From: a virus
Taxonomy: Duplodnaviria; Caudoviricetes
Strand: one strand, 5' to 3'
Virus record (IMG/VR): IMGVR_UViG_3300033463_000011
Coordinates: 64,001-128,000 of that record
Length of the DNA stretch: 64,000 nt
Shown: piece by piece, positions 10,317 through 52,594 of the stretch
Layout of the letters: every line of letters starts with the position of its first letter
Numbering within the stretch: the stretch's first letter is position 1
The notes under the pieces: model-generated
The model's input: only the letters and a program-made list of their open reading frames with translations
What the model was told of the DNA's origin: nothing
Database searches by the model: none
Translations under genes and position numbers: made by a program

Positions 10317-10715
10317 TTGAAAAATTGCTTCACTATAACAATTCAATCTTCAAAGATGGATGACTTAGCTCTTCATACAGAAGTATTTAATTCCAAAGAA
10401 GTACCTGACGTGATTTGTGTAAAATTGCCTGATAGTATGCCACGAGATATGGATCTATCAGGTATTTATGATTTAACAAATAACAAAGAATTAGAATTTT
10501 CGGATTATGTATCTAGAGATGAACACAGACCTTGGATTGATATATCTACTGCATTATTAGATGTGCTTTCAGGGCAACATATATACAAGTTAACATTCTC
10601 TAAAGAAGCTTGCAAGTTAACTGCAACTTGTTGGTTTAGCTACATAATTCAAGATACTTTTGTTAATAAGCCTTATGTATACATGAAGCGAGAAGAAGAG
10701 GAATTAGATACATGA
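10317..10715 (+). CDS. Hypothetical protein
   Basis: ORF with a TTG start after an AACCTT motif. Confidence 0.55.
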   Translation: MKNCFTITIQSSKMDDLALHTEVFNSKEVPDVICVKLPDSMPRDMDLSGIYDLTNNKELEFSDYVSRDEHRPWIDISTALLDVLSGQHIYKLTFSKEACKLTATCWFSYIIQDTFVNKPYVYMKREEEELDT

Positions 10716-11194
10716 AGCTATATATAAAAGCAAGTTTAAATTCTGAATTATATGAAATTAGCGTAGCAGGAATTAACGGAGGAAGTGAAACTGAACTTCA
10801 AGCTAAGTTACAAAAACTTTTAACTCGTGTCCCTGATGGAAGGTACGTATTAGATTTAGGACCTAAAGGCTATAACACAGGTTATTTAAAAGTTGATAAA
10901 GATAACTTTAAGTGGTTATATAATGGGGAATCTTATCCAGTTACTAATTATTGGGAGATCAAAGACCATTACATAGTTCTTCCCGAAGGATTTATGATTA
11001 GTGATAGAATTGATCACGAAGATGATAATGTAATTGTTTATGAAATATACGGAAGCGATTCTGTGATATATAGCGGTATAGAAGATTATGAACCAATGAA
11101 AGATGACGATTGGCGTTACTGCAAAGAATTAGGTATTTATTATCTTATAGATTATCAAAAAAGAGCAATATATGTTAAATGGAAGGTGATTTGA
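10712..11194 (+). CDS. Leader-bearing protein (MKLYIKAS)
   Basis: Shared N-terminal leader. Confidence 0.65.
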   Translation: MKLYIKASLNSELYEISVAGINGGSETELQAKLQKLLTRVPDGRYVLDLGPKGYNTGYLKVDKDNFKWLYNGESYPVTNYWEIKDHYIVLPEGFMISDRIDHEDDNVIVYEIYGSDSVIYSGIEDYEPMKDDDWRYCKELGIYYLIDYQKRAIYVKWKVI

Positions 11195-11196
11195 TT

Positions 11197-11961
11197 ATGA
11201 GGTTAAGCAGAATCTATACATCAAAAATGTATTTAACTAATCCTCGTAGGGATAGGATTCATGCAGCTATTAATAGCCCTGAGAATGTAGAATTAGTTCA
11301 GCAATTTGCAGATTATTTAGATGATGATTCTAAAGAAATATTAAAGCAGGCTATTAAAGAGCAAGCGGAGGCTAAACAGGCAGAAGATGTAAAATCAGAA
11401 CCTAAGGAATCTGGTGAAGGCGGTACGTCTGAAGAAAACTTCCCTGATGCAGAACATAATGTATTTTCCCCTTCTTATAGCGGAGGATCTTCGTTTGATA
11501 TTCCTGACGAGGGCGGAGACGTTGATGAGGGTGTTGACATATTTGATGTTCCTGAAGAAGGCTCAGAATCTGCTGAACCTGAACCTGAGGCTGAAGTTGC
11601 TGACATAGAAGAGTCTACTGAAGTTTCTGGAAAAGTAATTACTGCAGATACTTCAATCGAAGAGATAATAGTTGACATTGTAAGTGAGTCAAATGTAATT
11701 AAAGGAACACTTAATAGCATCAAAGATACTGCAGGAGTTATTAGAATTGCTGTTGATGACAATGAGCTTTGGATTTATTATAAAGACGAAGTTAACATCG
11801 GCGATATAATGGTAAATGTAATTGAAACGCTCAATGGCGCTAACTATACATACCTTACATTTAGCAGATTAGCAAGGTCTAATAATGCGATTGTATTTGA
11901 TATTAATTTTAACTTACAAGAACCTGTAAAATCTATCAATGAGGTATCGGAGGAAACTTGA
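11197..11961 (+). CDS. Acidic protein, possible head core/scaffold-like
   Basis: Long acidic linker with internal IHAA and VITAD sites resembling the leader core. The start at 11197 is inferred. Confidence 0.5.
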   Translation: MRLSRIYTSKMYLTNPRRDRIHAAINSPENVELVQQFADYLDDDSKEILKQAIKEQAEAKQAEDVKSEPKESGEGGTSEENFPDAEHNVFSPSYSGGSSFDIPDEGGDVDEGVDIFDVPEEGSESAEPEPEAEVADIEESTEVSGKVITADTSIEEIIVDIVSESNVIKGTLNSIKDTAGVIRIAVDDNELWIYYKDEVNIGDIMVNVIETLNGANYTYLTFSRLARSNNAIVFDINFNLQEPVKSINEVSEET

Positions 11962-11962
11962 T

Positions 11963-12184
11963 ATGTCAAATGATTATGATCCAACATTTGATGCTTTTCA
12001 AGATGAATTGAATCATGCGGTCTATGGAGCAATAAGCAGCGTATTATATAAATATGTAGGATATTTTGAAATGCGTCCCGAAAGACTTGAGGCATTACTT
12101 ATATCTTCAGTAGATACTGCTTTAGAAAATTGGGTTTATAGATATATTGAAAGTGAAAATTATTTAGAATTACTTGGAGAGTAA
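11963..12184 (+). CDS. Hypothetical protein
   Basis: GGAGG RBS before ATG 11963. Confidence 0.55.
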   Translation: MSNDYDPTFDAFQDELNHAVYGAISSVLYKYVGYFEMRPERLEALLISSVDTALENWVYRYIESENYLELLGE

Positions 12185-13378
12185 ATGAATATACTTGCTG
12201 CTGATTTAATCAGATACAATGCAAATAATAGGGGAACATACACTGGCGATTGTACTGCCCGTGCTATTTCTCTTGCGTTTAATATGGATTATCATAAAGC
12301 AAGAAAATTATTGAATGATTCTGCGAGAGAAAATTGGAGACTTAATTGGCAGTATAATTCTACTAACAATGTCAAGAAAGTAATTGAAAAACTCGGCGGC
12401 GGAAAAGCAGCAATATTGGTTGGTAGAGAATACACAGTTAATAGTTTTGCAGATTCACATAATCAAGGTACATATATTCTTCATTGTAATGATAATGGTA
12501 AAGAAGGCGGACCTGGAGGTCATTTAGTTACCATAATTGACGGTAAAGTATATGACAGTTGGGATTCTAGAAATTGTTATGTATTAACTTATCATAGAAT
12601 TGATTCGGGAATTCGCGGAGAAGATATAACTGATGTAGGCGAGTATCTTGCTCAATTCTTTAAATCAATGACTTCTCAAGGCCTAATTTCTTATGCCAAT
12701 AATGTATTTGATACAGTAGTTGACAAAAATAAAAAGTTAAAGAAACTCTCAGATGAGTATGGTGTAGATATAAGTCTATCTTTATCAGTAAGAAAAGCAG
12801 TATTCAAAGACTACGTGTTCAAATTTGTATATTCTGTTAGCGTAGATATTCCTTCCTATAACATATACAACAGTTCATATAGCAGTAAATTTGGAATTAC
12901 ATTTTCACCTACAATGACACCTGATCAAGTAGAGCCTTCATTCAATGCAAGATTTTATACAAAGATCTATGATTTTGTTAATTCAATCGTTAAGAAAATT
13001 GAAGATACTTGTGATGGGTATAGATTAATTGAACAGAATCGCGAAGGTATTACTATTCCTGATAGATTAAGATATCAATATGATAGATGGGACAGTGCAA
13101 CTGAGAAAAGCTTTAATGCATTACCTTATTGGGTAAGAAGATTAACTAAATGGTTTAGTAGGCGTAGTCCTTTTGAAGGTGGAGATTATGATAGCGTTGA
13201 ATTAACTATCTACACTCCGCCATTTGATACTAAATATGGACAAGCTACAGAAAATACAGTAGATCCAGATACACGGTACTTTCATGCGTACAATATGAAT
13301 GATTTAATGCGAGGATTGCAACATTATAGAGTTACTGGAGATTACGATGAAGCATATTTAATCGCAGGTGATTATTAA
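12185..13378 (+). CDS. Protein with an N-terminal papain-like (Cys-His-Asp) domain
   Basis: GDCTARAIS...GHLVTIIDGKVYDSWDS; starts MNILAA, a leader variant. Confidence 0.5.
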   Translation: MNILAADLIRYNANNRGTYTGDCTARAISLAFNMDYHKARKLLNDSARENWRLNWQYNSTNNVKKVIEKLGGGKAAILVGREYTVNSFADSHNQGTYILHCNDNGKEGGPGGHLVTIIDGKVYDSWDSRNCYVLTYHRIDSGIRGEDITDVGEYLAQFFKSMTSQGLISYANNVFDTVVDKNKKLKKLSDEYGVDISLSLSVRKAVFKDYVFKFVYSVSVDIPSYNIYNSSYSSKFGITFSPTMTPDQVEPSFNARFYTKIYDFVNSIVKKIEDTCDGYRLIEQNREGITIPDRLRYQYDRWDSATEKSFNALPYWVRRLTKWFSRRSPFEGGDYDSVELTIYTPPFDTKYGQATENTVDPDTRYFHAYNMNDLMRGLQHYRVTGDYDEAYLIAGDY

Positions 13379-13788
13379 TGAAATTGTATATTCGAGCATC
13401 GTTATCTAAAGAAGAACAGTTTCAAATTATCAATGAAACTAATCCTGCTCCTGAAGAGATGTATACTTGGATAAGGTCGGTAGATGATATACAAACTTTT
13501 CAAGAAGCTTTTGAAAATAATCGGGATGGCTATTCGGAAGGATTTACTGAGGACTATACCACAGAAGATATGTTAGCTGCTATACGCACTGGTAAGATAA
13601 CTGTATACAGCTCATATCCAATAGAGAACGGAAAATTTGTAACGCCTTCATATATGGAAGCAAAAAGCTACGGAGGCAGTTATGGAGTATATACAGCAAC
13701 TGTTGATTTAGATGATATTGCTTGGATAGATGTAGATCAAGGGCAGGTTGCAACAAATAAGAAGATAAATTACAAAAAGATAAAGTAA
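13378..13788 (+). CDS. Leader-bearing protein (MKLYIRAS), possible ART-like fold
   Basis: Leader plus ITVYSSYP...FVTPS...AKSY...DIAWID. Confidence 0.5.
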   Translation: MKLYIRASLSKEEQFQIINETNPAPEEMYTWIRSVDDIQTFQEAFENNRDGYSEGFTEDYTTEDMLAAIRTGKITVYSSYPIENGKFVTPSYMEAKSYGGSYGVYTATVDLDDIAWIDVDQGQVATNKKINYKKIK

Positions 13789-14627: not shown

Positions 14628-14975
14628 ATGAAGATTTATATTAGGTCTGCAAGAAAAGTTGATGAATCCTATGAAGACATTGAGTGCACAGATTACAGCA
14701 AGTTCAGTGTTGTATTCATGCTCATGCAAAAGTATTCAGATGGAATGTACTGCTTAGGCAAGTTCTACGCAGATAACTTATGGGCAGCTAAAGAAGCCCT
14801 CCAAGAAGCCCTCAAAAAACATCCTAACCTCGCCGATGCTAATCTCTATGTATCTAAGTACAATTCATATTTTGATACTGAAGAGAATAGAAAAGATCCA
14901 GACGGTGTAGAAGTTGACGTAGCCGATTCATTAGAAGATCTCATCGAAGAATTTGATTACGAATACGCAGAGTAA
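14628..14975 (+). CDS. Leader-bearing protein (MKIYIRSA)
   Basis: Leader and RBS. Confidence 0.65.
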   Translation: MKIYIRSARKVDESYEDIECTDYSKFSVVFMLMQKYSDGMYCLGKFYADNLWAAKEALQEALKKHPNLADANLYVSKYNSYFDTEENRKDPDGVEVDVADSLEDLIEEFDYEYAE

Positions 14976-17670: not shown

Positions 17671-17943
17671 ATGAAAATCTATTCACACAGCAAAATCAGT
17701 CAAAAGACAATAGATTACAAACTCAAATATGTAAACAATGTAATCGCAAAAGTTAGAAGAGGTTCTGCTTCAATGGAAGAGCTTAATCAAGCTTGCGAGA
17801 TGATACATTGGTTATGGAAATGGAAGGTCATAGACAGAGAAGAATCAGGTAAGTTAGCTGATATGATTTCTGACGCTATGGAAGGCAAATATCCCGAAGA
17901 TGATTGGGAAGATGGAAATAATTATTTCAAAGGAGAAGAATAA
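17671..17943 (+). CDS. Leader-bearing protein (MKIYSHS)
   Basis: Leader variant; upstream GAATCGTTAT. Confidence 0.6.
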   Translation: MKIYSHSKISQKTIDYKLKYVNNVIAKVRRGSASMEELNQACEMIHWLWKWKVIDREESGKLADMISDAMEGKYPEDDWEDGNNYFKGEE

Positions 17944-18183: not shown

Positions 18184-18633
18184 ATGAAGTTATATGTAAG
18201 GACAGCTGAATCAGAAAAGTCTACTCCCGAAGGAAATGTAGGCATCTGGTGGTATTGCAACGGCAACGTTGTAGGGGAATTCTGTCCTGTGGCTGAAGGG
18301 GTGGAAGATAGAGGCTACATCCAATTCAGTAAGACAAAGAATCATATAACAGAATGGGAAACAACAATCAAAGAGCAGCTTCCTGAAGCTATTGATTTAA
18401 TTTCAAAAGGATATAGGTCAATAGAAAGAGGTCGTGTAGTTTATGATATTCGTTCTCAAGTATATGAAATCATATGTAGTCAAGCAATTGCTGCTGATAA
18501 AGATGCTATAGACCTTATTGCTAAAGAATTTAGTATTTCAGATTTGAGATATGATGTAATACCGAGTTCTCATTATTATGTTCCTACATATACAGGAAAT
18601 CCTGCATTAGATAATTTTGATTTTGGAGATTAA
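18184..18633 (+). CDS. Leader-bearing protein (MKLYVRTA)
   Basis: Leader and RBS. Confidence 0.65.
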   Translation: MKLYVRTAESEKSTPEGNVGIWWYCNGNVVGEFCPVAEGVEDRGYIQFSKTKNHITEWETTIKEQLPEAIDLISKGYRSIERGRVVYDIRSQVYEIICSQAIAADKDAIDLIAKEFSISDLRYDVIPSSHYYVPTYTGNPALDNFDFGD

Positions 18634-19030: not shown

Positions 19031-19075
19031 ATGAAGATTTATATCAAATCTACGTCAGATTTACATGAGAAATAA
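19031..19075 (+). pseudogene. Leader-only mini-ORF MKIYIKSTSDLHEK*
   Basis: Intergenic 14-codon ORF consisting essentially of the shared leader. Confidence 0.55.
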
Positions 19076-24143: not shown

Positions 24144-25673
24144 ATGCCTAGATGGTTAGATAAATTATTTGGACCCCGAAAGCTTAACCTTCCTTCTCGT
24201 TTGAGAAGTACTGTTTGCGTAGGCGGTACATTTTACAAGATATCCGATCTTCGCGGAGATTCAGATATTGAAGATATTAGGACACAGATAACAGTAATGA
24301 GAGCACTTGCAAGAGACTCTCAAATCAGCACTGCTTTATCTTATTATGCAACAGATGCTACTACGCCAAATACTGCAGGCGACGTTATTTGGGCAACTGC
24401 AATAGATGAAAATCATCAGCAAGTGGCTGATATTATAAATACTTGCTTCAAAAGATGGCGAGTAAACGATTACGCAAGAGACCATATTCTTGAGTTAGCT
24501 ACAATTGGTCAGCTATATATGCCAACAACGGAAATGTATAGAGTACCTGGAGCTCATCAGAATAGAAACCTTGTATCTTTAGACGATAATACACTTCCTA
24601 ACATGGAATATGACATTATTCCGTCATATATGATACCGCCTGAGGATATTATTCACTTGTGGTATCAAGGACAACCTCAAGGTTACCTTTATCAAGAAAC
24701 TGCAAATGCTAATACTTCGTCGTTCTCCGGTGAACAGATAATCAGCTATCCTGAATCTTCTGTAATTCATTTTTCATTAGGCGGATTACTTGGAAACTAT
24801 AGCATTACAGGCACAGATAATCAAGGTAATGCTGTAAGTTATGATATTCAATTTGCAGAACCTATATTATCACAAGCAGTTCAGCCTACACAAACATTAA
24901 GTCTTTTAGAGGACGCTATGTTACTTTCTTCGTTAACTCGTACAGTAAGATTCATCAACGTAGATTGCGGTACAACCACTGAGGAAGATGAAATAAGACA
25001 AAATCTGCAAATAATTAAAGACATGATTGAGCAGCAATTAGCGCTTAATACAGCTACAGGTAATGCAGAAAGTTTTGTAAATCCTCAGAGCCCTAATAAC
25101 TTAATCTATCTTGCTAAAGTAAATGGCCAAGATGCTGTATCTATTACAGACCTTAACATGGGTGAGCCTACAGAAAGTGAGAATAAACTTCTTGATTATT
25201 ATCAAGATAAGAAGTTATCTGTATTGGGCGTTCCTAAAGAAGCAATGAATTTTTCCTCTGCTGAAGGTTTAGGCGGTGCAGGTGCTGTAATGTCACAAAG
25301 ATCTGCATTATATGCTAATCACTTGCTTCGAATTGAAACAGCTTATAAAAATGGTTGGCGAGATGCGCTTAACAAATACTTCGAATCAAGAAATATGAGC
25401 GGATTTAAGGATAAGTATATTCTTAATATGTCTCCTATTATCACAAACATGGATCAAGTACAATTTGAGAAGCGTGATGCGTCTATTCAGCAGGCAGCTT
25501 CACTTATTGATTTGCTTAAGAACTTAGGCGTAGAGGAAAATGATGCTTATAAGAAAGCATTAACTGAAATATTGACACAAGCATTCCCTCAAACCGGTGC
25601 ATCAGTTATGAAATGGGATATCAATGTTGAATCCGGCGGAGAAGAGGGCGAAGGCGGAATGGGAGGATTTTAA
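24144..25673 (+). CDS. Portal protein
   Basis: 509 aa with DSQISTALSYYATDA, LLEDAMLLSSLTR and YYQDKKLSVLGVPK, a T4 gp20-like pattern; lies downstream of the terminase. Confidence 0.75.
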   Translation: MPRWLDKLFGPRKLNLPSRLRSTVCVGGTFYKISDLRGDSDIEDIRTQITVMRALARDSQISTALSYYATDATTPNTAGDVIWATAIDENHQQVADIINTCFKRWRVNDYARDHILELATIGQLYMPTTEMYRVPGAHQNRNLVSLDDNTLPNMEYDIIPSYMIPPEDIIHLWYQGQPQGYLYQETANANTSSFSGEQIISYPESSVIHFSLGGLLGNYSITGTDNQGNAVSYDIQFAEPILSQAVQPTQTLSLLEDAMLLSSLTRTVRFINVDCGTTTEEDEIRQNLQIIKDMIEQQLALNTATGNAESFVNPQSPNNLIYLAKVNGQDAVSITDLNMGEPTESENKLLDYYQDKKLSVLGVPKEAMNFSSAEGLGGAGAVMSQRSALYANHLLRIETAYKNGWRDALNKYFESRNMSGFKDKYILNMSPIITNMDQVQFEKRDASIQQAASLIDLLKNLGVEENDAYKKALTEILTQAFPQTGASVMKWDINVESGGEEGEGGMGGF

Positions 25674-25921
25674 ATGAAAGCATACAAATCTTACAAATTT
25701 AGAATCTACCCTGATTTTGATCAAAAAACTAAATTAAATAAAACTTTTGGATGTGTCAGATTTATATATAACAAAATGCTTGAAGATAAGAAGGATTATC
25801 TATGTTAACTATTTAAACTTATATTGAACCGTAGGAACTACGGAGATAGCTCGTTGATACTTAAAACAGTAGTTTTATTGAGCGAGAATCTAATTCTAAT
25901 GTAATTTAGAAAGGAGTTCAC
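25674..25921 (+). mobile_element. Internally deleted IS605/TnpB mini-element (44-aa TnpB N-terminal stub plus right-end omegaRNA region)
   Basis: MKAYKSYKFRIYP...KTFGCVRFIYNKML (25674-25808), then ACCGTAGGAACTACGG.GATAGC, a hairpin and a GTTCAC end. Confidence 0.75.
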
Positions 25922-28095: not shown

Positions 28096-28449
28096 ATGAA
28101 AAAGACTGGTAGAAAACTTCCTTCAAACATTACAGCAGCTTCTAAGCCTAATGTGAAACTCAGAGTTGAATTTGAAACTTATGAACGCTTCGGCTCTGGA
28201 CAAATACGTAAAGCTACAGTTTCGGGAAACACATTATTAGATGCTCTTAAGAAAATGGTAGATAACATGCAGTTATATCTAGAATCTGATATGATAGAAG
28301 AAGAGAATATGACAGCAGAACAAGTTATTGAGGATATCGCAGGCTCTAATGGAGATGGTTGCGATTTTATCTTCTTATTAAAAAACCTTACAACTGGAGA
28401 AGTTTATATTGAAGAAGATTATTCTGAAGAAGATGAAGATTGGGACTAA
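28096..28449 (+). CDS. Protein with a basic N-terminus and an ITAAS site
   Basis: MKKTGRKLPSNITAASK; acidic C-terminus. Confidence 0.55.
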   Translation: MKKTGRKLPSNITAASKPNVKLRVEFETYERFGSGQIRKATVSGNTLLDALKKMVDNMQLYLESDMIEEENMTAEQVIEDIAGSNGDGCDFIFLLKNLTTGEVYIEEDYSEEDEDWD

Positions 28450-39248: not shown

Positions 39249-40100
39249 ATGTATATAAAATTTAGTAAAAAATTAGATTTAATACGAGAAAGAGATCAAT
39301 TCAAGCGCAATTTTGAAGCAAGGCAAGTGCTGTATGATTCTCAAATTAAAAACTACCGAGATGCAGAAGACCTTTGGGAAAGTATCATTGAATCTGAGAT
39401 AGAAAATGAATTTAAAGAATATATAAAAAATTTACCTTATTTGCGTATTTTTGTTAGAGCAATAGGCACCCAAGGTAATAGCATGAAAATAACAATTATA
39501 TATAATAATGAAGCTGATTCTAATTCCCCTAAGTGGAGATATGATGTAGATTTAGCTGCAAATGAAGATGACGAGGGCGTCCACATAGTTACGTCTACTC
39601 CTGCTATGTACTGGGATAGAATAAATTTTGCACAAATTGATATGGCGGAAATCTTACTAAATTCTGCAAAGTTAATCAGAGCTTTTGCAGATTTTGATTG
39701 GCAACGTTTAGTTGATTCCGCACTTGAAACAATTCCTAAGAAGAAAAATTACGTAGGAATAACTGAACCTAAATATGATATAGATTATCAAGATCCGGGA
39801 TATAACAGAAAGATACTTGAAGCACAGATAGAAGAAATCGTTGGAACTGATAACTGGTTAGTTGTAGATAATTACGGAGCTAAAAAATATATCAAAGTAA
39901 TTGATAACATTGGAGATTTTATACAATACAAATGTATATATCCTAACCTTTTAAATACAAGGGAACTAAATGAAGAATTAGAATCTGAACCTAATGCGGA
40001 TTTGAAAGATGATTTCTTTGAAATGTTTAAATTGCTTGAACCGTTAGAGATTATACCAGAAGATGATTTAAGAGATATTGCGAGTAGCTACGACGGGTGA
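39249..40100 (+). CDS. Paralog of 38323 with a degenerate GKDxW domain
   Basis: Shares AR.VLY.SQ and YQDPGY; IVGTDNW...PLEII. Confidence 0.65.
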   Translation: MYIKFSKKLDLIRERDQFKRNFEARQVLYDSQIKNYRDAEDLWESIIESEIENEFKEYIKNLPYLRIFVRAIGTQGNSMKITIIYNNEADSNSPKWRYDVDLAANEDDEGVHIVTSTPAMYWDRINFAQIDMAEILLNSAKLIRAFADFDWQRLVDSALETIPKKKNYVGITEPKYDIDYQDPGYNRKILEAQIEEIVGTDNWLVVDNYGAKKYIKVIDNIGDFIQYKCIYPNLLNTRELNEELESEPNADLKDDFFEMFKLLEPLEIIPEDDLRDIASSYDG

Positions 40101-40405: not shown

Positions 40406-42088
40406 ATGAAGGTTTACATCAGTGCAGCAAAAACAATTCAGCAACTCAAAGAACAAGACGCTCCAGATATGGATGAGTCGATCTTTGAAGAGTTAGTTAG
40501 ATTAGATCCTACATCAAAATATGATGAAGGAAAAGGAGGTAAATATACTCCTTGGGTCATTCGTCAATATAAGAAAGGTAATATTGACCTTGATGCAGAA
40601 GGCGAAGATAGTGTTGTAAACAGCTTAGTAGATTCTCTTGGATTATTTACTAAAGATTTCAAACATTTTAGCAAGAGAGATATCAATCAGTATAAAACAG
40701 TTCAAGAATTCTTAGACGAATCTAGACGAGTAGGTAATAGAGAATTAACTCCTAAGGAACTCGAAAAGCTTCATGGCAAACAGGCTCATCTTGCAGGTGA
40801 TAACGACAAGCAGTGTCTTGTAGAAGACGGCGATTGGCAGGTTTGGACACCCAAGACTTATGCAGGTTCAATTGCACTTGCAAGAATGGGTGGAGGTAAA
40901 CAAGCTGAATGGTGTACTGCTTGGACAAGAAGCGATAGCTACTATAGAAGTTACACAGCTAGAGGTCCACTTTACATTTTTATTAATAAGAATAACACTG
41001 GTGAAAAGTATCAGTCACATTTCGGAAACGATGGTAGAATTTCTTGGTTCTACGATATAGACGATCATGAGCGTGGCCAGCAAGCATTTACAGAGTTCTG
41101 TGCTAAGCATCCTAAGATCCAGCAATTCTTTAAACTTGAAAATAAAGATGGAATTCAAACAATGGCAGGTAATGTTATTGGCTATGATCCAAATGCTACT
41201 AAGATTGTTATTCCTGAAGGAGGTAGTCTGCTTTCAGGTAAGAGATTACCTTCTAGCCTCGAAACAGTAGTACTTCCTGATACAATGACATCATTACCTA
41301 GCTCAGTATTTGCAGGATTAGCTTCACTAGTAAATGTTCGTTTGCCTAAATCATTAACAGAAATTCCTTCGGATACATTTAAAAATTGCACTTCATTATC
41401 TCATATTGATATTCCCGATTCTGTTACAGTATATGGCAGTAATGCGTTTTCGGGGTGCACAAGTTTAAAGACAATTAATCACAGTAACAGCTTACAAGAA
41501 GTTAAAGACTATTGTTTCAAAGACTGCACGAGTCTTGAAGATGACTTACCTAATACAGTAACAAAGTTAGGTAAAGACGTATTCGCAGGTGCTGATTTAG
41601 CCGAATTTACAATGCCTGAAAGCTTAATGGAGATTAGCCCTAGTTCATTCGCAGGATGTAATATAAAGCAATTTAACATCAACAATGTCAAGACAATCAA
41701 AGCAAACGCATTTAAAGAATCTGGAGTTAATTCAATTGATTTGCGTAATGTAAATCACATTGGAAGTAATGCCTTCAGAGGATGTAACAAACTCACTACA
41801 TTTGATTTTAACCCTGAAGGAGTATCCATTGGTCCTTATGCTTTTGCAGATAGCAAAGCAAAACCTTCAAAGCCTATAACACTTTATCCTTCTACTACAA
41901 TTGATATTGGTACATTCGATAATTGTCCCAATATGACGATTCAGTGGGAAAAAGATGATGAACCTTATCCGTTCTTCAATATAGGATTACTTATTTGCGA
42001 TGAAAAGAAGTGCCCTGAATTAGTACGAGAGAATAAGGGAACAGTTAGGATACAAACAACTCAAGGTAATGAATATCCTGTAACATAA
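40406..42088 (+). CDS. Leader-bearing protein with a WCTA domain and BspA/TpLRR leucine-rich repeats
   Basis: MKVYISAA; WCTAW...GPLYIF; repeats such as LPKSLTEIPSDTFKNCTSL. Confidence 0.8.
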   Translation: MKVYISAAKTIQQLKEQDAPDMDESIFEELVRLDPTSKYDEGKGGKYTPWVIRQYKKGNIDLDAEGEDSVVNSLVDSLGLFTKDFKHFSKRDINQYKTVQEFLDESRRVGNRELTPKELEKLHGKQAHLAGDNDKQCLVEDGDWQVWTPKTYAGSIALARMGGGKQAEWCTAWTRSDSYYRSYTARGPLYIFINKNNTGEKYQSHFGNDGRISWFYDIDDHERGQQAFTEFCAKHPKIQQFFKLENKDGIQTMAGNVIGYDPNATKIVIPEGGSLLSGKRLPSSLETVVLPDTMTSLPSSVFAGLASLVNVRLPKSLTEIPSDTFKNCTSLSHIDIPDSVTVYGSNAFSGCTSLKTINHSNSLQEVKDYCFKDCTSLEDDLPNTVTKLGKDVFAGADLAEFTMPESLMEISPSSFAGCNIKQFNINNVKTIKANAFKESGVNSIDLRNVNHIGSNAFRGCNKLTTFDFNPEGVSIGPYAFADSKAKPSKPITLYPSTTIDIGTFDNCPNMTIQWEKDDEPYPFFNIGLLICDEKKCPELVRENKGTVRIQTTQGNEYPVT

Positions 42089-42106: not shown

Positions 42107-43387
42107 ATGAAAGTTTATATACGTGCAGCTCTTACAGTTAAGCAGCTTGAAACTCAAAATGGCGTAGGTTTAACAAAGCCTGTTCTTAAGCAAATCATTG
42201 AAATTGATCCTACATCAAACTACGACGAGGGAAAAGGCGGAAAATATTGTCCTTGGCTTATTAAGCAGCATAAGCTTGGCAATCTTACTCCTGACGATTA
42301 TACAAATGTCAAAGATGCTTTAGAGCTGTTCTCTAAAGACTTCAGACATTATCCTAATTCTGATATAAATCAGTATAAGACAGTAGAGCAATTCTTGTCT
42401 GATACTAACGCAGTAGCTAATAGAGAACTCACTGACAGAGAAAAAGAGAAGTTGCATGGTAAGCAAGCACATCAGGCTGGAGACGACGATAAGGAATTTC
42501 TTGTTGCAGATGGTGATTGGGAAGTTTGGACCCCTAAAACCTACACAGGTTCAATTGCTTTAGCAAGAATGGGCGGTGGAGGTCAGGCCGACTGGTGCAC
42601 AGCATGGACACGTAGTGATAATTATTATAAAAGCTACACTGCTAGGGGGCCTTTGTATATTTTCTTAAACAAGGGTAATACAGGAGAAAAGTATCAGCTT
42701 CATTTCCAGTCAGATTCTTGGTATGACGCAAGAGATAGATCTCTTGGAATGGATGCATTTTACGATTTTATCGCAAAATATCCTAAGTTCAAAGAATTCT
42801 TCAAGGTTAAATCAGAGGGTGGCGTACTTTCTAGGGCAGGTTCTATTATCAAGTATGATCCTGAAGCAACAGTTATCGATGTTCCTGCAGGGATGGAAAA
42901 GCTTCCTAACTTTAAATTCCCCGATAAATGTAAAGTAGTAAATCTTCCTGATTCTATTACTGAAATACCTCCTAAATGCTTTGAAAATTGCAAAGTAGAA
43001 ACTGTTACATTTAATAACGTAACTGCTATAAAAGCAGGAGCATTCAGAGGTTCAAGCATCAAGAACATTGACCTTTCTGGTGTAACACATATCGGAAGTA
43101 GTGCATTTAGAGATTGTAAGAAACTGCAATCAATAGATCTTAATCCAGAAGTAGTAATTAATTCATATTCCTTTGCAGGAGATCCAATTGGTGGCACTGT
43201 TGTAGTTGCTCCTACAATGAAACTTTCTATGAGTTCTTTCGAAGATTGTGCTAACCTCACAATAGTTTGGGAGAAGGAAGATGAACCTTACAGCTTCTAT
43301 GGAATTAAAGAATTAGTATTAGATCCTAAAGCTTGTCCAGAGTTATTTGAAATGAATAACGGAGAAGTACCTATTAGAAAGGTATAA
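42107..43387 (+). CDS. Tandem paralog with a WCTA domain and fewer TpLRR repeats
   Basis: MKVYIRAA; DPTS.YDEGKGGKY and WTPKTY.GSIALARMG shared with 40406. Confidence 0.8.
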   Translation: MKVYIRAALTVKQLETQNGVGLTKPVLKQIIEIDPTSNYDEGKGGKYCPWLIKQHKLGNLTPDDYTNVKDALELFSKDFRHYPNSDINQYKTVEQFLSDTNAVANRELTDREKEKLHGKQAHQAGDDDKEFLVADGDWEVWTPKTYTGSIALARMGGGGQADWCTAWTRSDNYYKSYTARGPLYIFLNKGNTGEKYQLHFQSDSWYDARDRSLGMDAFYDFIAKYPKFKEFFKVKSEGGVLSRAGSIIKYDPEATVIDVPAGMEKLPNFKFPDKCKVVNLPDSITEIPPKCFENCKVETVTFNNVTAIKAGAFRGSSIKNIDLSGVTHIGSSAFRDCKKLQSIDLNPEVVINSYSFAGDPIGGTVVVAPTMKLSMSSFEDCANLTIVWEKEDEPYSFYGIKELVLDPKACPELFEMNNGEVPIRKV

Positions 43388-44678: not shown

Positions 44679-44928
44679 ATGAAAATATACGCATCTAACA
44701 GAAATAACAACATACTTGAACGCATCATAGGAAAAGATGTCTGGATTTTGGTAGATATTCTAGAAGCTGAAACATGGGCAGAAAAGTTTTACAAAAGATA
44801 CTTTATTCAAATAGATGGGAAAGATTCTGAATTTTACAGCCCAGATTACAATCACTCGTGTCAGGAAAGATGATATAAAAGTAATTGAACCAATTGAAAT
44901 ATATACAACTGACGAATTATTTAACTAA
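44679..44928 (+). pseudogene. Frameshifted, internally shortened GKDxW-family gene
   Basis: MKIYAS...IIGKDVW lies in one frame; the family C-terminus VIEPIEIYTTDELFN* lies in another. Confidence 0.7.
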
Positions 44929-44988: not shown

Positions 44989-45396
44989 ATGGATTTTGAT
45001 ACAAATAATCATTCAGTATTCAAATTGCATTATCATCTTATTATGTGTGTGAAATATCGTAATAAGGTTATCACAGATGATATATCTATGCGACTAAGAA
45101 GTATTTTTGAATATATTGCACCAAACTACAATATTGTGTTAGAAGAATGGAACCATGATGTAGATCATGTGCATATACTTTTTAGGGGAGCCCCAAATAC
45201 CGAAATAAGCAAATTCATAAATGCATATAAATCTGCAAGTAGTCGGCTTATCAAGAAAGAATTTCCCCAGATCCGCAAATCCCTTTGGAAAGAAATGTTT
45301 TGGTCACAAAGTTTCTGTCTCATATCAACTGGGGGTGCAACTGTAGATACAATTAAAAAATATATACAATCCCAAGGAAAGAAAGATGGCAAATAA
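44989..45396 (+). CDS. tnpA: IS200-type Y1 transposase
   Basis: YHLIMCVKYR, HUH motif DHVH and catalytic Tyr in KKYIQSQ. Confidence 0.92.
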   Translation: MDFDTNNHSVFKLHYHLIMCVKYRNKVITDDISMRLRSIFEYIAPNYNIVLEEWNHDVDHVHILFRGAPNTEISKFINAYKSASSRLIKKEFPQIRKSLWKEMFWSQSFCLISTGGATVDTIKKYIQSQGKKDGK

Positions 45397-46947: not shown

Positions 46948-49182
46948 ATGGCTAAGATAACAATTAATCCGATTTCCAACAATTATTCGATTAATGTTAC
47001 AAATTCTAGTTACTGCACAGTAGCACTTCCTATCACTGCTTGTTGGGGACCTGCATTTGAGGATCCAACTACAACCAACACGCCTGAGGATATTGCATTA
47101 GAAAATACTGTCTGGACTAGATTTAATTCAACACAGACCGGATTACAATCATTTGTATCTACATACAGAGGTCCGTCTTCCAACTACAGAAGAGCAAAGG
47201 ATTATTCATATTATGTAGCTCTTTCACTTATTTCTAATGGATATGATGTACTTGTTTGCAGACTCTGTCCCGGTACAAATGCAGGCGGTGAGTTTGTAGA
47301 AGCTTCTTCCTATCAGTATAACGTATTAACTTCTGCGCCGGATGATTGGGCAACTAATTACGCTAATTACTATACAAAGAGCGGCGATGATTACGTTGCA
47401 GTTCAAGGTGTAGTTCAAGATAAGTATGTACACGTTTCAGGTGCAGAAGCTCCTACATTTGCTGCAAATACTTATTATAAGCTCGAAGATAATGAGTACG
47501 TTCTCTTAGAAGAAGCTCCGGATGATTGGGCTACTAATTGGGCTAATTATTATCAGAAAGATGGAACAGAGACAGTTGCTCCTGCATTCACAGCAAATAC
47601 TTATTATGAAAAAGTAGATATTGGCGGAGATAAACTTACAATCAAAGCAAAGTATCCTGGTACATTTGGTAACAACATCATTGTTACAATTAAGAAGATT
47701 GTGTCCTTAGGAGCTACTTATTGGAATGCAATTGTATATGCAGTAGATGCTTCTAACATAAGAACATCTCTTGAGAATCTCACATTTGTATTTGACGTAG
47801 ATAATTCTACAGACAGAATCCTTCACATTAGCGAGGTTGAGTCTAATTATATCACATTTGTTGGATATAACGGACTTAATGAAGACAGTGAGCTTGTAGG
47901 TGATTCTGCTTATGGAACATCTGTTCCTACAATCAGGCTTGCAGGTGGTGCCGATGTAGCTGCACAGAATGATGAGGATGTTGTAACAGATATTATCACA
48001 GCAGCTCAAGATTATGCTAAAACAAGATATCTTTTAGTAGCGTCTCAGCAAGAGATTGATGAAGATCATGTTTCATATATCAATTCATTTGATGCACTTA
48101 AAGTACCTACAACTGATAAGAATTTAGCTTATGCGCTTAGATTCAGAGAGTGGACATTTACTTACGCTACAAAGGTATTTGATCTCTTGAAGGATAAGTT
48201 AACCTATAATCCTAATAGAATTATTTCTCCTTGGGATGATCAGAACTTCTACGAATTTGGAGAAACAGAACCTAAGCAAAGATTTGGTCTTCTTTCTCCT
48301 ATGCATGTAAAGTTGATGGAAGTAGCTTACAATAGTAGATGTGCTACAGCACTTCTTGATATTCCGAAGAGTTTAGCAAGAGACGGTGTTTGGATTGACG
48401 ATCCTTCTTCTGATAAGGAAGGTTACGTACAGAAGCTTTGCAGATATCAGCCCGAAGAATCTTCTCAGCAAACAGGATTATTCACTTCATCTTCTGCATT
48501 ATTTGCTCCTTGGGGTCAATATACATACGTAGGAACATCAAGACAAGCTCCTGCAACACCTTCGTTCCTCGCACTTATGATTACAAGAGCAATGATTCTT
48601 AATCAAGCTAACCAGTATGAATGGGCTCTTCCTACAATCAGAAAGACAAATTTCAAGCTAGGTAAGTTAGATTATACAATTCCTGAGGACTTACTCGATA
48701 AATGGCAGTCCAGAGAAGGTTGCAGAGTAAATGTCATTATGAACCTTCCTGAAGTTGGTGCAAGCATTTGGGGTAACTCAACATTATTTGAAGTACCTCC
48801 GGCAACATATCAAGCACTTGCTAACCTTTCTACAAGATACATCTTCAACGCAATTCAGGATGTAGTTTATAGAGTAGGTATCGGCATCACATATCAGTAT
48901 AGCAACTCCAATGCTTATGACAGATTCTACGCAGGAGTTACACCTATTCTTGATACAATGTCTAACCTTGGTGCTCTTGTAAAAGGTGCAGATGTTCCTG
49001 GTAGAACTGATCTTGACGATCCTGGCTATTATGTAACAATGGCAGCTGATATCAACGGACTTGATTCAGTAAATGCTAACTCAGTAATCGGTCAGATCAT
49101 TATTAGAACAGCAGGTGTAATCGAAGACATCACAATCGACTTGATTGCTCTTCCTCAGTCTGCTTCATTAACAGCCACCTAA
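46948..49182 (+). CDS. Tail sheath protein
   Basis: WGP, AKYPGTFGNNI, LAGG, IWGNSTL, LSTR and IEDITIDL: a contractile sheath pattern. Confidence 0.85.
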   Translation: MAKITINPISNNYSINVTNSSYCTVALPITACWGPAFEDPTTTNTPEDIALENTVWTRFNSTQTGLQSFVSTYRGPSSNYRRAKDYSYYVALSLISNGYDVLVCRLCPGTNAGGEFVEASSYQYNVLTSAPDDWATNYANYYTKSGDDYVAVQGVVQDKYVHVSGAEAPTFAANTYYKLEDNEYVLLEEAPDDWATNWANYYQKDGTETVAPAFTANTYYEKVDIGGDKLTIKAKYPGTFGNNIIVTIKKIVSLGATYWNAIVYAVDASNIRTSLENLTFVFDVDNSTDRILHISEVESNYITFVGYNGLNEDSELVGDSAYGTSVPTIRLAGGADVAAQNDEDVVTDIITAAQDYAKTRYLLVASQQEIDEDHVSYINSFDALKVPTTDKNLAYALRFREWTFTYATKVFDLLKDKLTYNPNRIISPWDDQNFYEFGETEPKQRFGLLSPMHVKLMEVAYNSRCATALLDIPKSLARDGVWIDDPSSDKEGYVQKLCRYQPEESSQQTGLFTSSSALFAPWGQYTYVGTSRQAPATPSFLALMITRAMILNQANQYEWALPTIRKTNFKLGKLDYTIPEDLLDKWQSREGCRVNVIMNLPEVGASIWGNSTLFEVPPATYQALANLSTRYIFNAIQDVVYRVGIGITYQYSNSNAYDRFYAGVTPILDTMSNLGALVKGADVPGRTDLDDPGYYVTMAADINGLDSVNANSVIGQIIIRTAGVIEDITIDLIALPQSASLTAT
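47332..47607 (+). repeat. Internal duplicated module in the sheath (APDDWATN.ANYY and AP.F.ANTYY, two copies each)
   Basis: Repeats visible in both DNA and protein. Confidence 0.85.
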
Positions 49183-49285: not shown

Positions 49286-49972
49286 ATGAAATTATATATT
49301 CAAGCAGCTATCGCAAAATATGAAAAGCCCTGTACTATATATTACGGAGACGGAAATAGTTCTGCAAGTAGAGGAAACGAACCAGAACACATTAGTGAAC
49401 TTAGAGGATACGCCTGTAGCCCTGAAATGGCATTAGTAGCTGCACTTAATGCAGACATATTAGAAAATGGATTCACATCTAAAGATATATTAGATGCTAT
49501 ATTAGATGATGACGAATGGGATCAAGAATATTTTGAATTTGATGACCCTGAGGATTTTAGCGTTGAAGAAATTAATTCTAAAGGAATTGACTTCTGGATA
49601 TCAAAAATCTATGATATAGATCTTGGAGGAGGATATCCGTATCCCTATAAAGTAGAATTCAATAATCAAGTAATATTTCACGATAAAGTTACTGAAGAGA
49701 ACTTGCTTCCAGATGCTGTAAGAACTCCAGAACAAGAAACAGCTTGGTATCTAAGAAAAAGAGAAGAAAATTATCGACTTGGTCTTGCACATCATTCTGA
49801 TGATGCTGAAATACTTGATGATTTAGCAAATGATGGTTCTTTTGAGATTAAATCTTTAGTATGTGTTAATCCAAATGTTTCAAATAAAACTCTCCTAAAA
49901 TTATATTATAGCCAAAATTCAACTATAAGTTACATGGCAGGAAATAGATTAAAAGAACGCGGAGTTATTTGA
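49286..49972 (+). CDS. Leader-bearing protein (MKLYIQAA) with a C-terminal LRV/HEAT-like repeat
   Basis: Leader; LDDLAND...NPNVS...L.KL. Confidence 0.6.
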   Translation: MKLYIQAAIAKYEKPCTIYYGDGNSSASRGNEPEHISELRGYACSPEMALVAALNADILENGFTSKDILDAILDDDEWDQEYFEFDDPEDFSVEEINSKGIDFWISKIYDIDLGGGYPYPYKVEFNNQVIFHDKVTEENLLPDAVRTPEQETAWYLRKREENYRLGLAHHSDDAEILDDLANDGSFEIKSLVCVNPNVSNKTLLKLYYSQNSTISYMAGNRLKERGVI

Positions 49973-49973: not shown

Positions 49974-50336
49974 ATGAAAATATATAGTCATACGCACAAA
50001 CCCAAGGTAAACAATGTTGACAGCATGCAGGAATATCTTAAAAACTTTATAGGCAAAGAGCTGTGGGTTAAGGTAGGTATTGACCAAGATTATAATCTAT
50101 TTTACATTAGGGTAATTAATATATCTGGAAGCACATTAACTTGTAATCAAATATCAGCTGTGTTGGTAGATGAATCTGAAGACTATCTTTCACTGCAAGA
50201 AGATATTGATAGGTTGGAATATATCAAAAGATATGATTTATATGACATAGAAGTACCTGAAGATGGTAAACTAGACGTATATTCGACAGATGAAATAATG
50301 GAAATATTAAAAAATAGCGGGACGAGGTATATGTAA
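49974..50336 (+). CDS. GKDxW-family protein with leader
   Basis: MKIYSH; FIGKELWVKV...VYSTDE. Confidence 0.75.
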   Translation: MKIYSHTHKPKVNNVDSMQEYLKNFIGKELWVKVGIDQDYNLFYIRVINISGSTLTCNQISAVLVDESEDYLSLQEDIDRLEYIKRYDLYDIEVPEDGKLDVYSTDEIMEILKNSGTRYM

Positions 50337-50665
50337 TGAAGATATATGCTAACAGCTACACTAAAGAAGATTTAGAATATTATATTGGAAAAGATATCTG
50401 GGTCAAATGTTATTGTGCAAGCGGACATTCATATTACATGAGAATATTGTCTAAAGGTACTTCAAAATATGGAACTCCAATAATTATATTTAATAAGATA
50501 AAAGCTTATATAGTGGAAAACTTTAGGCCAACAATGAAATTGTTATCTACTTTGTTAAATGAGCAGGATCGCGGTATGATAAATGATTATGAAGTTTGTG
50601 AACCTATAGAAACACTAACAACTGACGAAATCATAGATATATTTGAACGAAAGAACGAACAATGA
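50336..50665 (+). CDS. GKDxW-family protein with leader
   Basis: MKIYAN; IGKDIWVK...PIETLTTDE. Confidence 0.75.
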   Translation: MKIYANSYTKEDLEYYIGKDIWVKCYCASGHSYYMRILSKGTSKYGTPIIIFNKIKAYIVENFRPTMKLLSTLLNEQDRGMINDYEVCEPIETLTTDEIIDIFERKNEQ

Positions 50666-50982
50666 TTATATACGCGTCGTCACAATCAAACGAACTTGAT
50701 AGATTCGTGGGCAAAGATGTGTGGATTAAAGCACACGTACCTAAACCCGGACCTAAATATAATGATCTCTATATATGGATACGAATACTCAATTCTGAAT
50801 ATGATGACGAATTAAAACAGGAAGGATACCGAGTTAACATTTGCGTTGATATGCGACACGTTAATAGCGAAGTCTTTAATGAAATATTAGATTACTCAGA
50901 AGTATTCCCTAAATATTATTTTAACGTAGTTAAACCTTATGACGTATTAACAACTAACGAACTAAAGGAGTCGCTTTCATGA
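50662..50982 (+). CDS. GKDxW-family protein with leader
   Basis: MIIYAS; FVGKDVWIK...PYDVLTTNE. Confidence 0.75.
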   Translation: MIIYASSQSNELDRFVGKDVWIKAHVPKPGPKYNDLYIWIRILNSEYDDELKQEGYRVNICVDMRHVNSEVFNEILDYSEVFPKYYFNVVKPYDVLTTNELKESLS

Positions 50983-51323
50983 AAATCTACGCATCAAGAC
51001 AACGTAAAGTAGCTGATTTTGTTGGTACAGGCTTGTGGATTAAAGTAATGAATCCTGACAACAGTAATTATACTTCTTATATAAAGTTACTTAAAGAAGT
51101 AAAGAGTTTAGATGATTGCGAAGATTGGATTGGATACGAATTTCAATCAATTCCTGAATGGGAAATTAATAGTTGGATAAATGGTGAAGCAGTAATAAGC
51201 AAAAGAATGAAGCTCAAAAAAGACGTTGCCGATAAATCTTATTTCGACGGACTCGTTTACTTAAATGAATGCTTTACTGATGAAGAAATGATGGAGTTAA
51301 TAAGGAGTAATAAAGAGCAATGA
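50979..51323 (+). CDS. GKDxW-family protein with leader
   Basis: MKIYAS; FVGTGLWIKV...FTDEE. Confidence 0.7.
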   Translation: MKIYASRQRKVADFVGTGLWIKVMNPDNSNYTSYIKLLKEVKSLDDCEDWIGYEFQSIPEWEINSWINGEAVISKRMKLKKDVADKSYFDGLVYLNECFTDEEMMELIRSNKEQ

Positions 51324-51622
51324 AGATATATGCATCAACTTCAACTAACTTAGATAAATTCATTGGCAAAGATTTATGGGTGCTCGTTTTAAAACGCGGT
51401 GGAGGTAAATCTTGGGTTCGTATATTAAGAAAAGAACGTAATGAATATATAGTTAACGCTGTTCCTAGAAACTTTGCGGATTATAGTGGATTTAATGCAA
51501 GAGACGCTAATTTTTACAACCAACACGCAATTCGTTTCTTCACAAACGAATTAATTTTAGTTCAACCTGTAGAAATTTTGACAACAGAAGAAATGTTTGA
51601 AAACCATAAGGAGGATCTCTGA
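51320..51622 (+). CDS. GKDxW-family protein with leader
   Basis: MKIYAS; FIGKDLWV...PVEILTTEE. Confidence 0.75.
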   Translation: MKIYASTSTNLDKFIGKDLWVLVLKRGGGKSWVRILRKERNEYIVNAVPRNFADYSGFNARDANFYNQHAIRFFTNELILVQPVEILTTEEMFENHKEDL

Positions 51623-51933
51623 TGATTATATACGCAGCAAGACCAGTAATGAAAGAAAAGCCTGATGAAGATATATTTAAACAAGTAATCGGCAAAGATG
51701 TTTGGATTAAGGTAAGACCAAAGCATAGTCCGTCCGATACTTTATATGCCAAGATACTTCGTATTGATAATAATGGATGGTTCGAAACTAAAGCTATTGA
51801 TATAGATAGATTGAATTTTCTTAGAAATAATAGAGAAAAGATACCTACACGAGGGTATGGTCGTCATTTCTTAATTGTTTGCAGGCCTGTTGAAATAATA
51901 ACTGAAGACGAATTGTTTGAGACAGAGCAATGA
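51622..51933 (+). CDS. GKDxW-family protein with leader
   Basis: MIIYAA; IGKDVWIKV...PVEIITEDE. Confidence 0.75.
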   Translation: MIIYAARPVMKEKPDEDIFKQVIGKDVWIKVRPKHSPSDTLYAKILRIDNNGWFETKAIDIDRLNFLRNNREKIPTRGYGRHFLIVCRPVEIITEDELFETEQ

Positions 51934-52262
51934 AGATATACGCAAATAAAAATCGTTATTTAGATCTAGAATACTTCAAAGGAAAAGAACTTTGGGTTAA
52001 AGTATTTAATGTAGAAACGATATCATTTCAGTATGTTAGAATACTGTCTATTGGTGGCAATTATGCACAATATAACAGAATTAATTCAGATGCCATAGAC
52101 GGAAATGATTTAGTATTACGTGAACATTTTGATTGGGTAACTAGTATTCTAACAAAGAAATTTTTAACTAAAGCAGATATGTTGCTAATAGCAGAGCCTA
52201 TAGAATTACTAACAACGGATGAATTTGTTGATTTAGTAAAAGAAAAGCAGGTGTATCCATGA
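51930..52262 (+). CDS. GKDxW-family protein with leader
   Basis: MKIYAN; KGKELWVKV...PIELLTTDE. Confidence 0.75.
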   Translation: MKIYANKNRYLDLEYFKGKELWVKVFNVETISFQYVRILSIGGNYAQYNRINSDAIDGNDLVLREHFDWVTSILTKKFLTKADMLLIAEPIELLTTDEFVDLVKEKQVYP

Positions 52263-52594
52263 AGATATATTCATCAAAATATTCAAATCAATTTGATAAA
52301 TATGCAGGAAAAGATATCTGGGTTAAAGTTAGAAGCAATAATCACAGCAATTACTTTTATATCAAGGTACTATATACCGAAGGTGATAACGTAGTTTGTA
52401 ACTCTGCACTTTCAGATTACATAGAGTCTCCTATAAATGATGTGTCAATTAAATGGGAAGACCTAGTAAACTATTTAAGCACTCAGTATACTTTTTACAT
52501 TCCTGATTTAACAATAGTGCATCCTGTGCAAACATTCACATATGAGGAATTAATCGAAGAGATTTCAGCTAACTACACTATTGATTACACGTAA
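52259..52594 (+). CDS. GKDxW-family protein with leader
   Basis: MKIYSS; AGKDIWVKV...PVQTFTYEE. Confidence 0.75.
   Translation: MKIYSSKYSNQFDKYAGKDIWVKVRSNNHSNYFYIKVLYTEGDNVVCNSALSDYIESPINDVSIKWEDLVNYLSTQYTFYIPDLTIVHPVQTFTYEELIEEISANYTIDYT

Follow-up and report, generated by a model that had tools for sequence, protein, structure and literature searches.

Why do dozens of otherwise unrelated genes of a single phage begin with the same few residues? The question is raised by a stretch of 64,000 nucleotides, referred to here as the window (bases 64001-128000 of the 200,233-bp IMG/VR record IMGVR_UViG_3300033463_000011, from an uncultured phage). A first-pass annotation had pointed out that about 28 genes in this window share one N-terminal leader, MK-x-Y-[IV]-x-A|S (| marks the predicted cleavage site), and had read it as a tag that loads an injected cargo into the head and is clipped off during maturation. 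On the evidence presented below, we consider it probable that the leader is a capsid-targeting and cleavage propeptide similar to the capsid-targeting sequence (CTS) of T4, cut by the phage's own Ala/Ser-specific head protease. The computational checks that the first-pass annotation had proposed were all favourable to this reading; the proposed effector role of the tagged proteins is drawn by analogy with T4 IPI and Alt.

All the starts named in the first-pass annotation were found at their coordinates, and 27 carriers were counted in the window, encoded by open reading frames (ORFs) of 64-560 amino acids (aa). Fifteen of them have the long leader, MK-x-Y-[IV]-x-[AST]-[AS], with the variants MKRKYIQSA (15046) and MYIKFS (39249) counted as long, and 12 have the short leader, MKIY[ACS][SNAH], which reads MIIYA in two cases and follows a GTG start in one (33950). 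The start at 19031 does encode MKIYIKST, but in a mini-ORF of only 14 codons, which is therefore a remnant and not a gene, apparently the stub left when a cargo gene was deleted. Checks of the portal and sheath genes, and of those for helicase, clamp and further replication proteins, confirmed the claim that they lack the leader. The features of the window are listed below; G002 is a related genome.

10712..11194, + strand: long leader, MKLYIKA|S, 160 aa, without a Pfam family
13378..13788, + strand: long leader, MKLYIRA|S, 136 aa
13834..14295, + strand: long leader, MKRYIRS|A, 153 aa; ACCTT-type promoter-like motif 45 nt upstream; leader-bearing homologue in G002
14628..14975, + strand: long leader, MKIYIRS|A, 115 aa
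15046..16002, + strand: long leader, MKRKYIQS|A, 318 aa, with a very acidic C-terminal tail
17671..17943, + strand: short leader, MKIYS|H, 90 aa; GAATCGTTAT motif 43 nt upstream
18184..18633, + strand: long leader, MKLYVRT|A, 149 aa; G002 homologue 75% identical, with leader
19031..19075, + strand: 14-codon mini-ORF, MKIYIKSTSDLHEK-stop, with the perfect long leader MKIYIKST and no body
32556..32897, + strand: long leader, MKIYIKS|S, 113 aa; weak Zn-ribbon match (E 0.0013, below cut-off)
33950..34705, + strand: short leader, GTG start, MKIYA|S, 251 aa
35079..36074, + strand: long leader, MKVYIKS|A, 331 aa, coiled-coil-like
36083..36454, + strand: short leader, MKIYC|S, 123 aa, GKDxW family
36981..37397, + strand: long leader on a GKDxW-family gene, MKVYVRS|STCTQD
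37428..37823, + strand: long leader, MKRYIRA|S, 131 aa
38323..39240, + strand: long leader, MKQYIKT|S, 305 aa; falls into the GKDxW blastp cluster
39249..40100, + strand: truncated leader, MYIKF|S, 283 aa; falls into the GKDxW blastp cluster
40406..42088, + strand: long leader, MKVYISA|A, 560 aa, BspA-type leucine-rich repeat (LRR) protein
42107..43387, + strand: long leader, MKVYIRA|A, 426 aa, BspA-type LRR protein; G002 homologue 52% identical, with leader
44679..44873, + strand: short leader, MKIYA|S, 64 aa, truncated GKDxW member
49286..49972, + strand: long leader, MKLYIQA|A, 228 aa, heading the array behind it; ACCTT-type motif upstream
49974..52594, + strand: eight tandem short-leader GKDxW beta-barrel paralogues of 100-120 aa each (starts 49974, 50336, 50662, 50979, 51320, 51622, 51930 and 52259)
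24144..25673, + strand: portal protein, without leader (phrog_213, E 1.5e-11)
46948..49182, + strand: probable tail sheath, without leader (phrog_279, weak)
28096..28449, + strand: possible further substrate, 117 aa, with the basic N-terminus MKKTGRKLPSNITAAS and I-T-A|A at residues 12-15; adjoins head-tail genes

The leader is not confined to the window. About 295 genes were called over the record, which has a G+C content of about 35% and carries nearly all its genes on one strand, and 62 of them (about 21%; 38 short and 24 long) have the leader, accounting for 17.6% of coded residues. The strict form M[KR]xY[IVACSG] occurred at 57 of 282 + strand N-termini compared with 1 of 1012 internal methionines, confirming the enrichment at gene starts, and Tyr was residue 4 in 72 of the 282 starts against a background of 5.6%. 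The other 220 + strand genes, that of the capsid protein included, are without the motif. Searched as DNA patterns on the coding strand, the long leader had 19 occurrences and the short one 33, and neither was found on the opposite strand or in reversed-pattern controls. The codons vary: Lys is encoded by AAA and AAG about equally, Tyr by TAT and TAC, Ala by all GCN codons and Ser by both TCN and AGY. When the first 10 residues were removed, the 62 carriers formed 33 blastp body families, comprising one large family of about 100-125 aa with the GKDxW motif, the two LRR proteins and about 20 unrelated singletons. Across the 2.9 million IMG/VR contigs, the precise form MKRYIKS[AS] turned up in no more than 14 stretches, most of them on large contigs. 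The leader motif is thus conserved as protein and not as DNA, and its spread is not due to paralogy alone.

A protease that could cut such a leader is encoded outside the window, at genome 154308-155801 (L007:308-1801). The 497-aa product matches phrog_207 'head maturation protease' (E 8e-19) and is a fusion, in which the first ~165 residues are the protease and the remainder is a coiled-coil scaffold. The AlphaFold (AF2) model of the protease domain, with a predicted local distance difference test score (pLDDT) of 81, gave T4 gp21 (5jbl) as the top PDB match in Foldseek (E 5e-6, template modelling (TM) scores 0.59/0.65, root-mean-square deviation 2.8 Å, probability 1.0), followed by herpesvirus proteases. 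A profile of 14 homologues also matched 5jbl (E 2.9e-5), and H70 and S125, invariant in these homologues, align with His85 and Ser140 of wild-type T4 gp21 (Ala in the 5jbl chain). In the model, the phage protease has the T4 gp21/assemblin fold. A complex prediction of protease residues 18-165 with a short-leader substrate scored 0.01, which speaks neither for nor against the proposed cleavage.

The cleavage motif of the leader recurs in the proteins that such a protease would be expected to process, as the first-pass annotation had anticipated. The protease-scaffold contains eight [IV]-x-A-[SA] sites (e.g. R-I-K-A-S and T-I-K-A-S), about eightfold more than the 0.9 expected; expectations were taken from shuffles of each protein's own composition, and eight sites were reached in 0 of 2000 shuffles. 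The remaining proteome shows no enrichment (55 sites versus 53.3 expected). All 15 relatives that were found via the capsid protein (L010-L024; 56-85% identity) have 4-8 such sites in the protease-scaffold, where about one is expected. Two positions are conserved: the protease-scaffold junction (Q-V-A-A|S, residues 165-169) and a site about 50 residues before the C-terminus (S-V-T-A|S). The T4-type site [LI]xE[small] is absent from this scaffold (0 versus 3.2 expected). The capsid protein (L007:1836-3275; Pfam Gp23, E 1.5e-17) carries a conserved [IV]-[TM]-A|A-T-N-T-S-N-I at about residue 84, right before the conserved body, which is the position of maturation; further sites lie within the N-terminal part of about 84 residues, and only 0-2 in the mature part. 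The P1 residue is Ala or Ser across leaders, scaffold and capsid protein.

Leader and internal sites change together between lineages. In G004 (272 kb, capsid 30% identical), the homologous protease-scaffold has no [IV]xA[SA] site but 13 [LI]xE[small] sites (3.6 expected), and in the cultured Streptococcus phage vB_SagM-GXN1 (27% identical) the numbers are 0 and 15 (3.9 expected). The same shuffle test recovered the [LI]xE enrichment of T4 as a positive control (gp22, 16 versus 5.7; gp21, 7 versus 2.5). The homologous capsid column in G004 reads L-L-E|A-T-N-S-Q-N-I, and the protease-scaffold junction is V-V-E|S there and V-A-A|S in the phage studied here. The leaders of both phages are likewise of the Glu type: about 18 genes of G004 begin MKL-x-I-N-E, and 6-9 genes of GXN1 begin MRL[IV][KR]L[TN]E. 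The long-leader DNA pattern was found 19, 8, 19 and 4 times in four genomes of the Ala-type clade (G000-G003) and not at all in G004. From these comparisons, the P1 preference of the protease appears to have switched within the clade from Glu, as in T4, to Ala/Ser.

The same body can also be found behind either type of leader. Among 23 orthologues of the 15046-16002 protein, obtained in a search of 5.8 billion proteins, 12 have a leader ending in Y-[IV]-x-[AS] and 11 have one ending in [LIV]-x-E. Both sets share ungapped columns directly before the conserved A-E-S-D-Y-[IV]-[KR]-[IV]-G-N, so the boundary between leader and body falls at the predicted P1|P1' bond, with P1 at leader residue 7. 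The LRR proteins, too, bear the leader type of their own lineage, MKVYI[SR]A here and MKL[TL]INE in G004. For 35079-36074, 93 full-length orthologues retain Y4 (92/93), [IV]5 (93/93) and [SA]7 (93/93) down to 42% identity, and in distant homologues of 232-246 aa, which have no leader, the body starts directly. Within the GKDxW family, the mature starts predicted for the two leader classes agree (long-leader MKVYVRS|STCTQD, short-leader MKIYA|STSTNLD).

These results can be read against the well-known system of T4. There, the N-terminus of IPII and IPIII is MKTYQEFIAE|A, as read from the T4 genome. Targeting by the T4 CTS relies mainly on its residues 4 and 7, and processing is governed by residues 8 and 10 (PMC9026906); the tag can fill the head with green fluorescent protein and further foreign cargo (PMC3012670, PMC9958956). 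The present leader resembles the CTS of IPII/IPIII, IPI and Alt in being a short N-terminal propeptide on unrelated, fast-evolving proteins, with an MK-x-Y/F start. As in T4, the end of the propeptide is the protease consensus (here a predicted one) that is also found in a gp23-type capsid protein and in the scaffold, and a gp21-fold protease and a Gp23 capsid protein are encoded in one genome. The system differs from that of T4 in the length of the tag (5-7 residues instead of 10), in the P1 residue (Ala/Ser, also Cys and Gly, instead of Glu), in the fusion of the protease to the scaffold and in the number of tagged genes (about 62 instead of a handful). Since its sites are not of the T4-type [LI]-x-E, it is a variant of the T4 system rather than a plain member.

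A further difference from T4 is a second, longer leader in the relatives, MKR-x-FTKYPSNY[IV]-x-A|[SA]. G002 (244 genes) has 24 leaders of the type described above and 11 of the longer type MK[RK]-x-FT-x-P-x-x-Y-[IV]-K-A-[SA]. In L010-L020 and G002, clusters of small genes with the leader MK[RK]-x-FTKYPSNY[IV]-x-A-[SA] were seen beside the head genes (e.g. L012:1142-1899, L018:15707-17291). The genome studied here has one longer-leader gene, at genome 152119-153237, which begins MKRRFTKYPSNYVGAAS.

Two other groups of viruses invite comparison. In the giant phages phiKZ, 201phi2-1 and SPN3US, too, a diverged gp21 homologue trims many head proteins at a short motif, among them paralogue families and proteins of the inner body and of ejection. 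The trimmed proteins are packaged and ejected, and more than one site is often present in a propeptide (PMC9026906, PMC10052503); all phiKZ-type proteases cut after Glu (PMC9026906). Unlike the leader described here, phiKZ-type propeptides are long and variable, with no single portable N-terminal tag, and these phages belong to another lineage with other hosts. Herpesvirus assemblin shares with the present protease an N-terminal position relative to the scaffold in one polypeptide, with predicted sites at the junction and near the C-terminus, as well as Ala at P1 and Ser/Thr at P1'. In pseudorabies virus the R site is YLQA-T and the M site VQA-S (PMC4498786); the leader Y-[IV]-[KRQ]-A|S resembles the former and the internal sites the latter. 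The match to herpesvirus proteases is one of fold (Foldseek probability 0.9-1.0, TM 0.4-0.5), and we do not file the protease as an assemblin (S21) member. Its closest structure is T4 gp21, and no herpesvirus is known to use the site as an N-terminal cargo tag. The simplest explanation of the herpesvirus-like specificity is convergence, following a single change from Glu to Ala within the gp21 family.

How might so short a leader work? Tyr4 is fixed relative to the N-terminus, so that it falls at P4 when the leader is long and at P2 when it is short. At all the internal sites of scaffold and capsid protein, Tyr is absent from P4 and P2, which makes Tyr4 leader-specific. As the T4 CTS separates targeting from processing residues, MK-x-Y is a candidate for the targeting part and [IV]-x-small|[SA] for the processing part. 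In the proposed mechanism, MK-x-Y would bring the protein into the assembling scaffold core, and about 60 proteins would be co-assembled into the prohead; the fusion of protease and scaffold makes capture of the tag by the core mechanistically plausible. The [IV]-x-[A/S, also C/G]|[S/A] part would be where the head-maturation protease of the phage itself cuts, and the cargo would lose 5, 7 or about 15 residues as the protease chops up the scaffold and trims the gp23-like capsid protein. The trimmed cargo would remain inside the head alongside the DNA and would probably enter the host at infection. Cleavage, packaging and injection of the leader proteins are all predicted here from sequence. 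Since the tag matches the putative site of the phage's own T4-type head protease, loading into the capsid, with trimming inside it, is the most likely fate of these proteins.

The structural prediction for the short class is consistent with a propeptide. In the model of a GKDxW protein (51320-51619; 34 paralogues), mean pLDDT is 87.5 but below 50 for residues 1-5, and a small beta-barrel starts near residue 11, suggesting that the leader is a linear, disordered motif; M1, K2, I3 and Y4 are nevertheless at least 90% conserved. The fold had no PDB match better than E 0.1 and is a generic SH3/Sm-like small barrel. A Pfam search with 30 leader-bearing or neighbouring proteins recovered LRR_5 in two of them, the weak Zn ribbon and a marginal match to PRTase, and nothing else. 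Of the bodies suggested by the first-pass annotation, the BspA-type LRR proteins (40406, 42107) and the GKDxW family are real, the Zn ribbon is weak and the 'ART-like' body obtained no Pfam support in the same search. With no recognisable function in the bodies apart from the two LRR proteins and the small beta-barrel family, the term 'effectors' is used by analogy with T4 IPI and Alt. At the C-terminus of the 15046-16002 protein, about 25 Asp/Glu residues follow one another, which recalls gp67 and gp68, T4 core proteins with acidic tails; as the protein is conserved into the Glu-type lineages, it may be a component of the core scaffold rather than an effector. The tagged genes turn over quickly: only 6 of the 35 tagged G002 genes have a homologue here (all six partners being tagged), compared with 91 of the 209 other genes, which fits a cargo involved in an arms race.

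The genomic positions of the leader genes were also analysed. These genes are interleaved with tail-fibre, baseplate and head genes, and none lies in the early small-gene or replication blocks. Units headed by ACCTT[AT]n, a motif also present upstream of portal, protease, sheath and baseplate genes, contain 53 of the 62 leader genes. Because the ACCTT pattern is loose, with at least one evident false unit, it was used as weak support only.

Several observations weigh against a role in capsid targeting and maturation. Eight leader genes follow the GAATCGTTATA element, which otherwise precedes replication genes, and the promoter classes are loosely defined. No targeting sequence tested so far is as short as five residues. 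Cys is found at P1 in 12 short leaders, with no counterpart among the scaffold and capsid sites. T4 internal proteins are basic; the leader proteins are acidic (median isoelectric point 4.7-5.2), and this analysis gave no support for the character of a DNA-binding internal protein. Depletion of internal sites in the bodies was not significant (long-leader class, 1 versus 4.2 expected, P ~0.08; short-leader class, 2 versus 2.4). The match of the protease to Pfam Peptidase_S77 (PF03420) scored 22.7 bits (E 7.5e-5), under the gathering cut-off of 27 bits. Since the Ala-type genomes form one clade, the co-switching counts as one evolutionary event seen in several site classes. Finally, the phage is uncultured and known from its sequence alone.

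If the leader is not a packaging signal, it could be a propeptide only, clipped by the gp21-like protease outside the capsid as a means of activation or timing late in infection. The site evidence indeed concerns cleavage and not its location, and both the eight genes behind a replication-type promoter-like motif and the acidity of the proteins would suit this explanation. We nevertheless regard it as unlikely, given that the interleaving of leader genes with tail, baseplate and head genes and the leader-specific Tyr4, whose counterpart in T4 (residue 4) is a targeting determinant, point beyond cleavage. In addition, T4 gp21 is active only inside the completed prohead (PMC9958956), and here the protease is fused to the scaffold. 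The location of the largest arrays inside baseplate and tail-fibre gene blocks, together with the hypervariability of the GKDxW family behind a conserved N-terminal region, could alternatively mean that the N-terminus, especially in the roughly 40 GKDxW paralogues, is an uncleaved anchor that docks exchangeable proteins on the exterior of the tail or baseplate, as receptor-binding-protein adaptors do. At least 20 unrelated larger proteins share the leader, however. The model shows it as disordered, its sequence agrees with the sites of scaffold and capsid protein, and Glu-type lineages have an [LI]-x-E leader in its place, so that we give the anchor little credence.

Even less probable is some other N-terminal signal, read by a host or phage factor other than the head protease: it might mark the protein for degradation, direct it to a compartment or to secretion, or be the site of a host protease. 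Prp, the protease of ribosomal protein L27 that is used by staphylococcal phage 80alpha, cuts its substrates at F|A-S, which Y|A-S resembles, and the link between protease and leader is indirect. The leader has no hydrophobic segment, though, and a host factor would leave both the match to scaffold and capsid sites and the switch to [LI]-x-E unexplained. Cleavage of the host Prp/L27 type was considered and rejected, as the long leaders (Y-I-K-A|S) do not fit a site with an aromatic P1. The explanation to which we assign the smallest probability is that the motif is a translation-start or mRNA signal, or is inherited by gene duplication, with no role for the peptide. In low-GC genomes many genes start with MK and have A/T-rich first codons, and Ile3 is encoded by ATA in 34 of the 38 short leaders, as in recent paralogues. 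This idea is largely refuted by the variation of synonymous codons everywhere else, the 33 unrelated body families, the 220 + strand genes that lack the motif, the rarity of MKRYIKS[AS] in IMG/VR and the recurrence of the same tripeptide rule inside the scaffold. A capsid-targeting propeptide cut by the head protease therefore remains the reading that we prefer.

Some further features of the genome were noted. The motif GAATCGTTAT(A) is found about 30-60 nt upstream of about 30 genes genome-wide, mostly genes of replication, nucleotide metabolism and queuosine (examples at window 3515, 17628, 32484, 33505, 35033, 52601 and 55823), and ACCTT[AT]n lies 30-55 nt upstream of the portal, protease, sheath and baseplate genes and of several leader genes. 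The two motifs have the appearance of two kinds of promoter used by a phage-specific transcription system. A complete IS200/IS605-type insertion sequence lies between a block of leader genes and the sheath gene (window 44989-46519); it encodes the Y1 transposase TnpA (Y1_Tnp, E 7e-43) and TnpB (OrfB_IS605, helix-turn-helix and Cas12f1-like TNB domains). An N-terminal remnant of TnpB, 44 aa long (MKAYKSYKFRIYPD...), is located behind the portal gene (window 25674-25808). Four paralogous HNH/homing-endonuclease-like genes of 600-690 aa were found (window 30403-32475, L007:3478-5364, L007:5509-7317 and genome 62495-64315), two of them directly after the major capsid gene. A 316-aa ORF at window 20017-20964, just upstream of the large unassigned ORFs 21039-22526 and 22545-24107 and of the portal gene, has a weak match to an intein-splicing domain (E 3e-6, below cut-off), and the region may be an intein-interrupted packaging gene.

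As for related cultured phages, a megablast search of the structural region against them gave no match, and the closest cultured capsids are only 27-29% identical by protein. Genome announcements were found in the literature for vB_SagM-GXN1, LIS04 and HSE3, but no proteomics.

Extended beyond this genome, our results raise the possibility, which we advance tentatively and at somewhat less than an even chance, that in a widespread clade of uncultured phages of 125-250 kb a head protease of the gp21 type has acquired a herpesvirus-like Ala|Ser specificity, and that these phages use a tag of 5-7 residues to load dozens of rapidly exchanged proteins, the products of roughly one fifth of their genes, into the capsid for injection. 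At least 93 distinct orthologue clusters, many on contigs of 180-207 kb, indicate the extent of the clade. If the proposal is true, a motif of 5-7 residues would by itself identify the proteins that are packaged and injected throughout this clade of large, uncultured phages, and about 20% of their unannotated genes would become a defined class of candidate anti-defence and host-takeover proteins. The gp21/assemblin lineage would contain a clean Glu-to-Ala switch at P1, visible in capsid, scaffold and cargo, which bears on the relationship between phages and herpesviruses. The leader would also provide a natural packaging tag shorter than the T4 CTS for loading foreign proteins. It would represent a strategy of protein delivery on a scale not described for any phage, built on a minimal portable packaging tag.

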